Shown here: piece after piece, positions 3,826 through 35,625 of the stretch | Position numbering within the stretch: position 1 is the first letter of the stretch | Layout: every line of letters starts with the position of its first letter | DNA from: a virus | Taxonomy: Duplodnaviria > Heunggongvirae > Uroviricota > Caudoviricetes | Length of the DNA stretch: 64,000 nt | IMG/VR virus record: IMGVR_UViG_3300033747_000014 | Reading direction: 5' to 3' (one strand) | The notes under the pieces: generated by a model | What the model saw: the letters and a program-made list of their open reading frames with translations, nothing else | Databases searched by the model: none | Told to the model about the DNA's origin: nothing | Translations under genes and position numbers: made by a program

Positions 3826-4152
3826 TTATTCATTTAAATTTTTAAGAATTTTATCAGCCCATCCATTGGCAACTTCATCAACCTTATTCTCAATATTCTT
3901 ACTTATTGTTTCTTGTAATTTATATTTTAATGCCCAATTATTACACAATAGTTTAATACTCATTTTAAATTCTTCTTTTACAAGTTCAGCAATTGTTTCT
4001 TCGAAATTATCGTCACTAAATAATTCATTAAAACCTCTTTCAATTCCGGCTTTTACACTATCCTCTATATGTTTATTATCAATTTGAACTTGTTGCAACA
4101 TTTTTTGTGCATTAATATCTAATTCTAATTTAATTTGTGTTAATCTTTCCAT
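3826..4152 (-). CDS. hypothetical helical protein
   Basis: co-oriented ORF. Confidence 0.75.
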   Translation of the reverse strand: MERLTQIKLELDINAQKMLQQVQIDNKHIEDSVKAGIERGFNELFSDDNFEETIAELVKEEFKMSIKLLCNNWALKYKLQETISKNIENKVDEVANGWADKILKNLNE

Positions 4153-4164
4153 AATTAATTTATT

Positions 4165-4530
4165 TTACATACTATAACTAAATTGAAAATATTCTTTTTC
4201 ATTTAATTGAATACTAATGGTTCCTGCAAATTCATCACCCAAATAACCACCATTAGTTGTTTGGTTAACCCATTGACCTTTTAATGCATTAAAATCAGAT
4301 TCTTCTTGATAATTACCTTTTGGTTTATTTGTGATAATATAATCATAAGTATATTCAGAGCATTCAATAGAAAATAAAACGTCTTCATACTCATCATTAT
4401 TTAATTGAGATTTAACATATTCTAGAACATTCTTTTTGTTTTCATCTTCTTTTCGTTCTAATTCAATCAGTTCTTTATATAACCTTGAATCATCCATATC
4501 CATATAGAATTCATAATCATTATTATACAT
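4165..4530 (-). CDS. hypothetical acidic protein
   Basis: co-oriented ORF. Confidence 0.75.
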   Translation of the reverse strand: MYNNDYEFYMDMDDSRLYKELIELERKEDENKKNVLEYVKSQLNNDEYEDVLFSIECSEYTYDYIITNKPKGNYQEESDFNALKGQWVNQTTNGGYLGDEFAGTISIQLNEKEYFQFSYSM

Positions 4531-11265: not shown

Positions 11266-12545
11266 TGAAATTAACTTTATGTGTTGAATATATTCAACAT
11301 CACAGGATGAACTACTCCACCCTCTATCCCATCTGCGAAAGCTTTTGGGAATACTTTTCTTGTTATATTTAATGCTCCATTTACATCTGCATTAATTAAA
11401 CAACCTTTACTTGTTTTAAATAAACCTCTCTTTATCCTTCTTCCTAAATATTTTTCTTGTTTCTTCACCTCTTCATTATCTAAAAAACTACATTTTGATG
11501 TATATGATTCGTTTACCATGATATAATCAATTCCATATTCTTTACATTTATTTTCTAACTTTCTCTTAAATAAAAAATAAGGTATCTGAACAAAGGTTTG
11601 ATTATTTACCTTACCTATATTACAATTCTTTTTCCATGTCTCATTATATCCAATAATTATACTACCAATATTATGGTCTATAGAATATTTTATTATTCTT
11701 GATATAATTTGATTAAAATAATTATCAATATAATTATTTCTATTTTTATTTAATATAGAAATCTTTTTAGAATAATGTTTATCGTTACATACTTTTAATT
11801 CTGATTGTATTTGTGATTTCTGTTTGTTGTAAAATTTATTATAAGATTTAAGAGGTTTACCATTCATAGCAAATGAACGTCCAACATTAGAAACACAAGT
11901 TACTAGATTATTAATACCTAAATCAATACCTAATATATTATTTTTATCAAAATTATAATTTTGGTCTATTTTATTTTCTTCATAAACAATATATAAAGAA
12001 TAATAACCATAATTATTAGGTTTGATTATTGCTTGTTTAATTTTACCATCTATTTCATAGGAATAATTTAATTTTAAATCTTTAGTTATTTTTAATTTAC
12101 CTTTCTTCAAAGAAACTTGATCTTGTGGAAGAATAAGGATAAATTCACTATTAGATTTTTTATATTTAGGTTCAGATATATTATCAGCATATCTACCATT
12201 ATTTTTTTGTTTTAATAAATGAAAAAAAGAAACATAATTTTTATCAGCCAATCTCAGTATTTGTTGGGATATTTTAGCAGGAATAGATTTATAATGAATA
12301 TTCGTTTTCATTTCATGATATAATTTATTATAACCTATATAAGAATTAGTTTCTTTATAATAACATTTAATAAAATATAAGGTGGAATTATAAAGAGAAT
12401 TGGAATGTTTACACATTCTCTTCAACTCTATATATTGTGTTTTATTTAAACCTCTTATATTTTGTTTAATCGTTTTCATTGTATTATATAATACCGTTCT
12501 TTAAATATAAATAGTATGAATAATAAAAAAAATACAAGAAATTCA
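11265..12545 (-). mobile_element. non-autonomous solo-tnpB element; no tnpA in the window
   Basis: tnpB flanked by TTCA direct repeats at 11261-11264 and 12542-12545; boundaries are inferred. Confidence 0.55.
11277..12479 (-). CDS. tnpB: IS200/IS605/IS607-type RNA-guided endonuclease TnpB
   Basis: 400 aa; N-terminal HTH (SNSLYN); RuvC motifs GIDLG, VNESYTSK and NADVNGALNI intact. Confidence 0.93.
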   Translation of the reverse strand: MKTIKQNIRGLNKTQYIELKRMCKHSNSLYNSTLYFIKCYYKETNSYIGYNKLYHEMKTNIHYKSIPAKISQQILRLADKNYVSFFHLLKQKNNGRYADNISEPKYKKSNSEFILILPQDQVSLKKGKLKITKDLKLNYSYEIDGKIKQAIIKPNNYGYYSLYIVYEENKIDQNYNFDKNNILGIDLGINNLVTCVSNVGRSFAMNGKPLKSYNKFYNKQKSQIQSELKVCNDKHYSKKISILNKNRNNYIDNYFNQIISRIIKYSIDHNIGSIIIGYNETWKKNCNIGKVNNQTFVQIPYFLFKRKLENKCKEYGIDYIMVNESYTSKCSFLDNEEVKKQEKYLGRRIKRGLFKTSKGCLINADVNGALNITRKVFPKAFADGIEGGVVHPVMLNIFNT

Positions 12546-24402: not shown

Positions 24403-24891
24403 TTAATCACCATCTTGTTGTATTAATGGTAGTACCTTATTAGCATCAATTACTTTAATTCTTTTCTTTAATTCATCTAAACTTTCATGAAGCAATTCTT
24501 CTCTATTTAAATTATAATAATGATCTTCTATTTTACATAATAGTTTCCATGCTAATCCGCTTTGTATTTTTTTACGCATATCATCAATTTTCTTATAATA
24601 TGCATCATAATCTTCAGGGGATTTTATTTTTAGTATTTTTGAATTATTTGGGTCTAGTTTAATATTATGTTTTTCACACAAAGCATTATATTCATTTTCA
24701 CTAATATTATGATAATCTTTCCACAATAATTTCTGAAGTTTATCTTTTCTTTCAAGTTTTGATTTTACTTCTTTAACTTTATTATATGCTTCCTCTGTTA
24801 ATCTTTCAGCTTCTTCTCTACTTGTTGCAAAGAACCAATTAGCTGTTGTGTAACCTTGACATTCAAATGTGCTTAGTGTGTATAATTTCAT
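24403..24891 (-). CDS. hypothetical coiled-coil protein
   Basis: ORF downstream of a promoter at ~24920-24950. Confidence 0.75.
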   Translation of the reverse strand: MKLYTLSTFECQGYTTANWFFATSREEAERLTEEAYNKVKEVKSKLERKDKLQKLLWKDYHNISENEYNALCEKHNIKLDPNNSKILKIKSPEDYDAYYKKIDDMRKKIQSGLAWKLLCKIEDHYYNLNREELLHESLDELKKRIKVIDANKVLPLIQQDGD

Positions 24892-25000
24892 AAGTATTAT
24901 TTATTCCTTTATTATCTATTACAAAGATATAACATTGATCTATATAATCCTAATTATTTATGTTAATAATTCCTAATAAATATATATTTTAAATTTAAAA

Positions 25001-25189
25001 TAAACAAAGCTGTCCCCAAGTGGAATTATTAAGACACCATGTATGGACGTTTAAAGCTAGCGTATTCCGCAAACTTCTTAATAACCTTACAATAAATACA
25101 CTATTCACTTGGTAATGATATTGGATTTTTATCAGTAACCCACACATTCTACATAATATCATCTTATTTATTGTAAGCAGCTTTGTTTA
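25001..25189 (-). ncRNA. candidate ~190-nt multibranch structured RNA; strand inferred from neighbours
   Basis: nested perfect helices 25001-12/25178-89, 25086-98/25165-77 and 25026-34/25076-84; no ORF. Confidence 0.55.
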
Positions 25190-25215: not shown

Positions 25216-25350
25216 CTATGATATTAATAAATATATGATCCAAAGAACTTGTAAAATATTTGCTAATATTGGATATATTATCTTAATTTTTTCATATCCA
25301 TACAAAATCCATAAGGTTAATGCTAAAATCATTAATAGTAGTGAAATCAT
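25216..25350 (-). CDS. 44-aa two-TM peptide (not in the ORF track)
   Basis: hand translation MISLLLMILALTLWILYGYEKIKIIYPILANILQVLWIIYLLIS. Confidence 0.5.
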   Translation of the reverse strand: MISLLLMILALTLWILYGYEKIKIIYPILANILQVLWIIYLLIS

Positions 25351-25387: not shown

Positions 25388-25888
25388 TTATCTACCAATT
25401 GGATTATTATAATAACGATATGTATTATTATTAGATTTAGGTTTCTCTATTTCAAACTCATATTTGGGGTCAGGTTTATTAAAATAATTATGAAATGATT
25501 TCAACACAAAATAAATCTTATCGTATAACATTTTTTCATTATATATTGATGTCCCATATGGTTTAATGATTAATTTAGTGTAATTATCATCAACATAGAC
25601 TGTAAAAATACCTTTATATTCAGTAGTAAAACTTTCACTATTAAAATAATCTATAACATATTTACCTTTAAAAACACCATATTCTTTATCACTGTATTGA
25701 ATAACTGTTTTTGATGAATTAAAAACATCAACAGCCCATAAATTACATTCAACGAATAATGAATCTTTTGATTTATTAACATTTATCTCTGTGGAATATT
25801 CTGCATCTGACAAAATGGATGTGCTAACACAACTCATCTGAGTTAATGTTAAAATCAGTAAACTAATTATTAATATAGTTTTATTCAT
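25388..25888 (-). CDS. lipoprotein, DUF4468-like
   Basis: signal peptide ending in QMSC; SKDSLF..W....F.SSKTVIQYSDKE.G..KG motif. Confidence 0.65.
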   Translation of the reverse strand: MNKTILIISLLILTLTQMSCVSTSILSDAEYSTEINVNKSKDSLFVECNLWAVDVFNSSKTVIQYSDKEYGVFKGKYVIDYFNSESFTTEYKGIFTVYVDDNYTKLIIKPYGTSIYNEKMLYDKIYFVLKSFHNYFNKPDPKYEFEIEKPKSNNNTYRYYNNPIGR

Positions 25889-25893
25889 AGTAC

Positions 25894-26391
25894 TTATTGT
25901 TTTTGTTTATAATTAAGATTTATACCAATTGTAAAATATATTCTTTGTATAGTTCCTGTACCCATAGTAATACTTGTATCGTGTTGTGATAATGTTAACT
26001 GAATACCACCATTCATTTTACCCTCTCTATATGTTACTATATTACCATATATTTGTTCAGACACCACATATCCAATTTTGGGTGTTATATAAATTAATGG
26101 TTTATACCCTGAAGGATTCGATAATTTGAAATTAACACCAACATTACCACCATACCAATGAAGATTATCTTTATCATTATTATATTCTCTTAATGAATTA
26201 GAATAATCTAAATGTAACCAATTATAATCAATTGAAAACATAAAAGCAGCTTCATCATCCACTTCAAGAATTTCAGATTCAATATAATTTGTGGTAATAC
26301 CCATTGAAAAGAAATTGATTTCTTTTTGTGCATCCACAGTATTTATTATACCAACAAATGCAATCATCAATAATAAAATAATTTTCTTCAT
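25894..26391 (-). CDS. secreted/outer-membrane beta-barrel-like protein
   Basis: MKKIILLL..AF signal peptide; amphipathic beta strands; aromatic C-terminal strand. Confidence 0.6.
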   Translation of the reverse strand: MKKIILLLMIAFVGIINTVDAQKEINFFSMGITTNYIESEILEVDDEAAFMFSIDYNWLHLDYSNSLREYNNDKDNLHWYGGNVGVNFKLSNPSGYKPLIYITPKIGYVVSEQIYGNIVTYREGKMNGGIQLTLSQHDTSITMGTGTIQRIYFTIGINLNYKQKQ

Positions 26392-27182
26392 AATGCTTCT
26401 TTTTATTTAATTATTAATACTTATTTAATTATTACTCTGCAAACATAACACATTTATTTTTACCATGCAAATATTTTATAAGAAAAAATTCCCATAGAAG
26501 AAAAATAATTATTATCTATGAATATTAATTATTCCTATAACTATAATAAGAATAATGATTAGTCACCATATAAACCATTTTTAAGCCATATAAGAACATT
26601 TATCTATATATCCACACAAAGATACCCATAGAACTTTTTTATGAAACTATCATTACTATATTATACAAATATAACCCATAGAAGATAATATATTATCCAT
26701 ACTAATCATTTTTCCCCTATATAGATATTATTTTATCTATTACTATTTTTGACCATATTTTAATCATAACAATGATTAGTTTTTAATCATAATTTATATT
26801 GATTATTATCTTTACTATATTTTGTTTATTTTTTAATCATTTATCGTCTATCTGTACTAAAACCCTATTTATTTGTACTAAACCCATTATATATCTATTT
26901 ATTAAGTAGTTAGGGATATATATTCTAATTCGTTGAAATAGAGGGGGATATAGGCACATTGTACAGTATTTTAAATTTAAAATATATTAAAATAGTTATT
27001 TAGTTGATTATTAGGGGTTTATGACGAGAATATGTAAACATTGTACAGTATTAGGTGGTTGAAAATGGTTAATAGTGGTTGAAAATGGGGTTCCCCCACC
27101 CAGAGCATTTCATCCATAATTAAAATTATGTTTATTAAAATTATAAAAAATTATATTAAATAGAATTATGATAAACAAAAAA

Positions 27183-27213
27183 ATCCCCTATAGATATTTT
27201 TTCTATAGGGGAT
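27183..27213. terminator. intrinsic terminator
   Basis: ATCCCCTATAGA/TCTATAGGGGAT stem flanked by A/T tracts. Confidence 0.8.
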
Positions 27214-27233
27214 AAAAAGAGTAGACAAAAAAA

Positions 27234-35144: not shown

Positions 35145-35150
35145 ATATAA

Positions 35151-35548
35151 ACAGATGACTATTTTACTACTATCGCTATATCCATTAGTTTTAAAAAAGA
35201 TTGCTGTAAGTCATCTTATGAGATTTTCAAAAGATTTTATTTTTTAAATTTAATTATTAGACAGATTATATCTAAACGATATAAGAGTATATTTATTCCT
35301 CAATTTACTAATAATTAAAAAACAGGTAACTATATTTACGTGTCAATTTAAAAGATTGATGTATATAAATAGTTGCTGTAAGTTACCTTTTACAAGTGAC
35401 AAACGGATTTGAACCGCATCTTTAAATGTTTCAGAATTTAAATTTAACCATAGGGTGGTTGCTGTATGTCACTTTATAGAAACAGATGAGCATTTATTTA
35501 TCCAAATCATATATCAGGTTTTTTTAAATGATTGCTGTTGCTCATCTT
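35151..35548 (-). ncRNA. tandem array of four ACAGCAA stem-closed RNA units
   Basis: units 35151-35217, 35322-35389, 35392-35474, 35482-35548; 8-9 bp covarying closing stems, invariant ACAGCAA, 3' GT. Confidence 0.75.
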
Positions 35549-35625
35549 TTAATTAAGAGGTTGGTAGAAAATATTATCATGAAAACACGCTGACGTTTCA
35601 GGTGACAACCAACCTCTTTATAAAT

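Follow-up and report, generated by a model that had tools for sequence, protein, structure and literature searches.

A structured 189-nt RNA of an uncultured jumbo phage and its three-way-junction module common to other phage RNAs

Retron ncRNAs carry a closing inverted repeat and have a length and a long stem similar to those of the 189-nt RNA described here. GOLLD is able to embed another RNA, and phage ribozymes, namely the theta ribozymes, occur in tRNA-like and tmRNA settings. For the crAss-like Cellulophaga phage phi14:2, strong and stable rightward transcription of an RNA at the g005-g006 junction has been described; this RNA is reported to be very abundant, its function being left open (bioRxiv 10.1101/2020.03.07.982082).

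The locus analysed here lies in a window of 64,000 nt, i.e. the whole stretch of DNA under study. A first-pass annotation of the window had proposed an ORF-free, structured ncRNA, probably derived from the minus-strand transcript, with a closing repeat reminiscent of retrons. What it overlooked is that one arm of the fold is a module common to the RNAs of unrelated phages. The 189-nt RNA belongs to no catalogued family and acts like a small stable phage RNA; both the RNA and its module are new and absent from Rfam.

Genomic surroundings and fold of the RNA

The window has a GC content of 25% and is densely packed with short genes without known function, along with three tRNAs, the nearest of which lies 3.4 kb from the 189-nt RNA. 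Intergenic repeats flanking the genes of the window fit the Bacteroidota promoter consensus, which consists of TTTG, a spacer and TAnnTTTG. The proteins encoded next to the RNA recur letter for letter on contigs of up to 299,394 bases, and near-identical DNA is present in ENA, JGI and Logan assemblies. On the basis of the promoter matches and the identical neighbour proteins on these long contigs, the source of the window is an uncultured AT-rich jumbo phage, probably a Bacteroidota phage.

All genes around the RNA are encoded on the minus strand (Table 1). The 44-aa hydrophobic ORF is kept in a related phage (contig L172). Judging from the arrangement of the motifs, the nearest upstream promoter match is the probable source of the RNA transcript, while the separate promoter match of the downstream gene argues against the RNA being the leader of that gene. 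A terminator scan found none at the 189-nt RNA. The GC content of the element amounts to 32%, compared with 13-17% in its flanks. A 55-codon ORF (24995-25162, minus strand) overlaps the element mechanically and is uncalled as a gene in all assemblies compared.

Table 1. Coordinates of the features at the RNA locus (window positions) and of the related loci in Stenotrophomonas phages (contig positions).
Feature	Position	Strand	Remarks
Whole structured ncRNA, 189 nt	25001..25189	-	Closing helix P1, arms P2 and P4, short third arm or loop; multi-way junction
P1, 5' strand, 12 bp	25178..25189 with 25012-25001	-	Pair probability 0.93-1.0, end pair 0.64
P1, 3' strand	25001..25012	-	Followed by a U/A-rich tail and a copy of the TTTAAATTTAAA palindrome (24988)
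P2 arm	25086..25177	-	13-bp stem 25177-25165/25098-25086; encloses hairpin 25141-25123 and the 5' strand of the putative pseudoknot
Putative pseudoknot/kissing strand a	25106..25112	-	7 Watson-Crick pairs, duplex -8.6 kcal/mol
Junction segment with putative pseudoknot strand b (25022-25016)	25013..25025	-	Alternative 3-bp hairpin, pair probability about 0.5
P4 arm, the common three-way-junction module	25026..25084	-	Relatives in phi14:2, BUCT626 and Yut1
P4 stem, 9 bp	25084-25076/25034-25026	-	
P5 hairpin	25075-25055	-	
Invariant UUAAA linker	25054-25050	-	
P6 hairpin, one bulged U	25049-25035	-	
44-aa hydrophobic ORF	25216..25350	-	Ends 26 nt upstream of the RNA; third and last gene of the unit
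DUF4468 gene	25388-25888	-	In the three-gene unit upstream of the RNA
First gene of the three-gene unit	25894-26391	-	Same unit as the DUF4468 gene and the 44-aa ORF
Bacteroidota-type promoter match	26440..26471	-	Nearest upstream of the RNA, ahead of the three-gene unit
Bacteroidota-type promoter match	24922..24953	-	Downstream of the RNA; serves gene 24403-24891
BUCT626 module	L379:1479-1524		Model R3, 20.2 bits
tRNA-like RNAs of Stenotrophomonas phages	BUCT626 L379:1454-1557; Yut1 L382:144-244; BUCT627 L383:155-289		Exchangeable structured inserts

On the minus strand the element folds at -50 kcal/mol with a z-score of -4.42, compared with -41.8 kcal/mol and -3.96 on the plus strand, both z-scores being far from zero. 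None of 200 shuffled sequences folded as well, and a perfect helix of at least 12 bp, of which the element has two (12 and 13 bp), arose in 1 of 500 shuffles. The three outer helices exceed what chance would give. In a window-wide stability scan the element ranked among the most stable minus-strand segments, though not at the top. Pair probabilities exceed 0.9 for P1, P2 and most of P4.

The helices of 12, 13 and 9 bp listed in the first-pass annotation, together with both strands of its 7-nt cross-pair, were all recovered in place. The smaller inner stems fared less uniformly. All of them are present in the sequence, but the 8-bp inner stem has a pair probability of about 0.01 on the minus strand, so that the interior of the P2 arm is left without a settled fold. 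The strands of the 4-bp stem CCAT/ATGG allow two to three pairs at most, because four pairs would leave a 2-nt loop, and the 3-bp stem GCG/CGC is really the tip of a longer hairpin.

For comparison with the cross-pair, a perfect 7-bp helix with four G-C pairs was formed by 18 of 500 shuffles (about 4%), and the cross-pair alone is therefore suggestive of a pseudoknot rather than diagnostic. As modelled, pairing of 25112-25106 with 25022-25016 into a pseudoknot is plausible, with the covariation basis of the structure lying in the P4 arm only. One pseudoknot model combines a 3-bp hairpin, six kissing pairs and a 5-bp stem, giving 14 pairs beside the 13-bp P2. On the plus strand the model loses four G-U pairs. 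This loss, together with the orientation of the module in the tmRNA and tRNA-like RNAs described below, identifies the minus strand as functional. The outer helices fold on this strand, and the element as a whole is very likely a real structured RNA. The earlier assignment of a structured ncRNA to the minus strand agrees with a phage tmRNA whose sense strand carries a relative of one arm with its structure kept.

Several further features of the window were recorded alongside the RNA. The palindrome TTTAAATTTAAA occurs at about 43 sites (e.g. 24988, 28587, 29959 and 30552), often at gene boundaries, and in several cases the leader ACTGTACATT comes after the palindrome, immediately 5' of a start codon. 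An 840-nt stretch without genes (26392-27233), conserved in the related phage (L172:2815-3513), contains a terminator and ACTGTACA motifs; the GC skew flattens nearby, and the stretch is a possible origin or control region. A TnpB/IS605-family gene with the Pfam domains OrfB_IS605 and Cas12f1-like TNB is located at 11277-12479 on the minus strand. Between 40900 and 54150 on the plus strand at least 13 near-identical promoter cassettes precede short genes, an inverted repeat spanning the promoter, and the region looks like an early-gene region with a common regulator site. The gene-free segment 59500-59900, situated between converging gene blocks, has long G and C runs and might be a genome end or an assembly joint. 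Immediately upstream of tRNA-Leu, 35145-35620 (minus strand) forms four tandem short stems with an ACAGCAA motif after each, with a below-threshold Rfam likeness to Dictyostelium class I RNA (E 0.004). The stem and the ACAGCAA motif are also found on the gut phage contigs L179, L195, L198, L211, L213, L218 and L229, and the region is probably a small-RNA array.

The three-way-junction module in other phage RNAs

The covariance models of Rfam 15 gave no match to the element even at E 10, the sole match at E 5.6 lying outside it, in agreement with the earlier expectation of an undescribed RNA. Neither BLAST against cultured phages nor pattern scans of IMG/VR and metagenomes found a full-length relative, and P1, P2 and the pseudoknot consequently carry no covariation. 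Furthermore, no relative of the P2 arm and no second copy of the element in the window were found, and those scans of the two collections whose patterns were taken from the pseudoknot strands returned chance matches only. Relatives of the neighbour proteins lie on short contigs that are devoid of the RNA or end before its site; contig L172 stops about 35 nt short of the RNA site, and a Logan contig (SRR26090898) encoding a neighbour-protein relative has a 368-nt gap before the gene. A literature search found no description of the RNA or the module, the short models of the viral candidate-RNA catalogue PMC10690425 standing outside this comparison.

Covariation among homologues, which had been suggested as a check, was observed in the P4 arm, for which relatives were found. 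The models R1-R3, with R1 being a covariance model from the element sequence alone, were run over about 120 phage records and identified phi14:2 only. R1 matched phi14:2 (L232) at 4269-4389 with 21.9 bits, inside the tmRNA gene (4031-4500; assigned by ARAGORN, with a just-sub-threshold Rfam match) and 3' of the tag reading frame. The module itself occupies 4302-4366 and runs in the order P4, P5 hairpin with a variable tip and no gap, UUAAA, P6 with a bulged U and two C-G pairs, and the second P4 strand, again without a gap. All 18 module pairs hold in the window and in phi14:2, with eight pairs differing, seven on both sides and one on one side; this count leans toward structure, as the structure was derived from the same two sequences.

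Scored by sequence only, the phi14:2 match was equalled by one of 1500 shuffled versions of that RNA region, and its score of 34.5 compares with a best chance score of 34.0 in 3.1 Mb of unrelated DNA. In a scan of a genome collection, the coding region of fabZ matched much of the core by chance, and one further chance site was hit. Owing to this nearly equal background and the fabZ match, the case rests on sequence, structure and context jointly. A structure-plus-motif descriptor applied to 6.3 Mb returned the window and phi14:2 only. A weak match on L368 and a match on L380 turned out to be coding DNA, and a BLAST search of the module against plasmids gave no genuine relative.

The long non-coding RNA at the g005-g006 junction of phi14:2 is a tmRNA that has a long tag and carries an inserted domain of 121 nt; the available sections of the phi14:2 report neither state this assignment nor describe the module (bioRxiv 10.1101/2020.03.07.982082). 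The tmRNAs of Bacteroidota phages (about 120, L249-L367) possess long tags and, from the stop codon to the 3' end, structured inserts in varying combinations. Of about 100 tmRNA-bearing records compared, phi14:2 is the one that carries the module. A second recurring module with the core GAAAGACCCGAA frames the three-way-junction module in phi14:2 (L232:4280-4300). This core was also observed in other tmRNAs and free-standing (L250:5470-5530, L355, L359:7380-7430 and, outside its tmRNA, L320), and the likeness of this second module to 23S rRNA 2057-2077 was not significant.

Using a query mixed from the two conserved cores of the window and phi14:2, we obtained an intergenic match in the Stenotrophomonas phage BUCT626 and its kin with a BLAST E value of 0.4, which is not significant alone. 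At this locus, the predicted P4 and P5 pair in exact register with unrelated sequence, a situation that 20 of 2819 random positions (0.7%) allow; the locus had no match in Rfam. The BUCT626 module takes the place of the anticodon loop in a tRNA-like RNA that has acceptor, D and T arms. The corresponding RNA of Yut1 (L382) shows a P5 changed on both strands with pairing kept, the linker, bulge and CC/GG pairs being likewise kept and the first P6 pair broken. In the sister phage BUCT627 (L383) this tRNA frame encloses another, longer insert, and the RNA carries a pseudo-tRNA annotation there, whereas the tRNA-like RNAs of BUCT626 and Yut1 are unannotated. Several more strong hairpins were noted around the BUCT626 locus (L379:1183-1700).

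The complete arrangement of P4, gapless P5, UUAAA and bulged-U P6 with CC/GG is found in the window, phi14:2 and BUCT626, and all of it but the first P6 pair in Yut1. Across these four different module sequences, of which two are closely related, the module is conserved in structure in three kinds of RNA. It is rare and exchangeable, and it has been found so far only inside non-coding RNAs.

Possible role of the RNA and its module

We propose that the 189-nt RNA is a small, stable phage RNA that acts in trans and whose gene lies on the minus strand. It would be transcribed from the promoter at 26471 as the 3' part of the three-gene transcript and subsequently trimmed to the 12-bp closing helix, the paired ends of which would be protected, while the cross-pair would fasten the P2 arm to the base of the fold. 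Closed and probably pseudoknotted, the frame may act as a scaffold on which the module persists and stays accessible; in other phages the module is built into other long-lived RNAs, namely the tmRNA of phi14:2 and the tRNA-like RNA of the Stenotrophomonas phages. With unpaired bases that are conserved while the stems vary, and with three different RNAs as its hosts, the module has the appearance of a binding site, and the nature of its carriers, a tRNA-like RNA and a tmRNA, points to translation, RNA decay or tRNA-targeting defence. Judged from this context, the module would most likely bind a protein, as a decoy or recruiter, of the host translation, RNA-decay or anti-phage machinery. Taken together, the account of a stable trans-acting scaffold that displays a protein-binding or decoy module is put forward tentatively, with transcription, processing, pseudoknot and binding as its predicted steps.

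A more specific version, in which exchangeable aptamer modules on long-lived frames bind and inactivate a conserved protein of the host, for instance a translation factor or a defence nuclease that targets tRNAs, appears rather unlikely to us. If true, the 189-nt RNA would be a dedicated carrier of an RNA-based counter-defence module that is active across Bacteroidota and Gammaproteobacteria. The joining of three RNA classes by the module in unrelated phages suggests that phage ncRNAs are assembled from exchangeable parts. With phi14:2 and BUCT626/Yut1 being cultured carriers and BUCT627 a natural swap control, the roughly 50-nt module is open to experiment.

The position of the RNA, 26 nt after the last stop codon of the three-gene unit, with a U-rich tail and a next gene that has its own promoter, would also suit a purely architectural role, in which the fold blocks 3' exonucleases and stabilises the upstream membrane-protein mRNA in cis. 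The module would then be filler in the tmRNA and tRNA-like RNAs, and phage tmRNAs indeed exchange many structured inserts in the same region. However, a simple hairpin would be enough for end protection and the terminator scan found none, and the unpaired UUAAA, the bulged U and the AUA loop start are invariant in three unrelated phage groups, resembling a recognition surface. We thus consider an exclusively architectural function unlikely, albeit worth keeping in mind.

Improbable in our view is a new small ribozyme or processing signal, by which the module or the whole RNA would cut or release its host RNA. Cutting at the anticodon position or within the tmRNA would fragment those very RNAs, and neither a hammerhead, HDV, group I or RNase P core motif nor an Rfam ribozyme match was found, although such an activity would fit a three-way junction that is compact, keeps its unpaired bases and occurs in tRNA-like RNAs and a tmRNA. 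Slightly less probable still is a selfish, hitch-hiking insertion spread by recombination and tolerated for its self-folding without benefit. Its patchy occurrence in one of about 100 tmRNA-bearing Bacteroidota phage records and its swapping between sister Stenotrophomonas phages are in line with such a mobile sequence, but the module copies are without common terminal repeats or target duplication, and the compensatory changes indicate selection on the RNA structure.

It is very improbable that the helices and the cross-phage matches reflect chance in AT-rich DNA. The sequence-only significance is weak, a full-length relative was not found and fabZ matched much of the core, but these points are opposed by the z-score of -4.4, the two perfect helices of 12-13 bp, the 18 of 18 pairs with seven compensatory changes, and the location of all three structural relatives in non-coding RNA genes. 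Finally, a retron-like msr-msd RNA or decoy whose reverse transcriptase would be encoded in another part of the 299-kb genome, of which the window covers a minor part, is hardly credible despite the 12-bp closing inverted repeat, the length and the long stem, as no reverse transcriptase was found among the scanned proteins or beside the RNA, no unpaired G ends the closing stem on either strand, and the module relatives reside in tmRNA and tRNA-like RNAs.

Comparison with known RNA systems

The retron likeness noted in the first-pass annotation is confined to the outer shape, i.e. the 12-bp terminal inverted repeat (a1/a2-like) and the length of about 190 nt of msr-msd RNAs. Different from retrons, no reverse transcriptase is adjacent and there is neither an unpaired branching G nor a simple msd hairpin; the G with which the 5' arm ends is paired (0.98), the next base being C on the minus or U on the plus strand. 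The neighbours are the DUF4468 gene, the 44-aa hydrophobic ORF and unknown proteins, and the relatives of the arm are not beside reverse transcriptases. The additional remark that the window lacks this enzyme is consistent with our scan of 20 proteins (the neighbours and most of the largest ORFs), among which no reverse transcriptase family was detected.

The helix order recalls the catalytic domain of RNase P RNA (P1-P2-P3-P4-P19), with a closing helix, a second helix holding a hairpin and a pseudoknot strand, an arm and the partner strand, the pseudoknot itself being putative. CR-I, CR-V, the bulged U in the pseudoknot (P4), P5/P15 and the specificity domain are lacking, the similarity to E. 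coli rnpB does not exceed that of shuffles, and Rfam gave no match. Among known ribozymes and introns, the hammerhead, HDV L3, group I P7 and group II D5 motifs were absent in minus-strand scans and Rfam. Mimicry of 23S rRNA was discarded, the element, the module and the outer domain of phi14:2 scoring no better than shuffles. The likeness of the module to 16S rRNA 1331-1377 was reached by 3 of 200 shuffles, and 16S mimicry was rejected because it was one of 15 tests and relies on the non-conserved P5 tip.

With phage small stable RNAs (T4 species 1/2 and the larger GOLLD and ROOL) the 189-nt RNA has in common the closed ends, the high degree of structure and the setting in tRNA-bearing regions. 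It differs from GOLLD and ROOL in having no Rfam match, and the T4 species 1/2 RNAs (rnaC/rnaD) showed no module anchor and heavily gapped alignments only. A tRNA or tRNA-like identity of the element itself was dismissed, with acceptor, D and T arms and a CCA end not found in it, and ARAGORN and Rfam detected no tmRNA in the window, the module alone being common.

The BUCT626/Yut1 tRNA-like RNA is distinguished from the window RNA by its tRNA frame, a GC content of 58%, a gammaproteobacterial host and a shorter P5, and shares with it the module, for which the anticodon stem acts as P4. The phi14:2 tmRNA differs in that the module is nested in a tmRNA with a tag ORF and tRNA-like ends, whereas the window RNA is free-standing without tag ORF, T arm or CCA and has an extra P2 arm and a possible pseudoknot. 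Like the probable source of the window RNA, phi14:2 is a Bacteroidota phage, and its RNA is transcribed on the matching strand. The 121-nt domain around the phi14:2 module is closed by a helix that has the same five bases at its start and end as P1.
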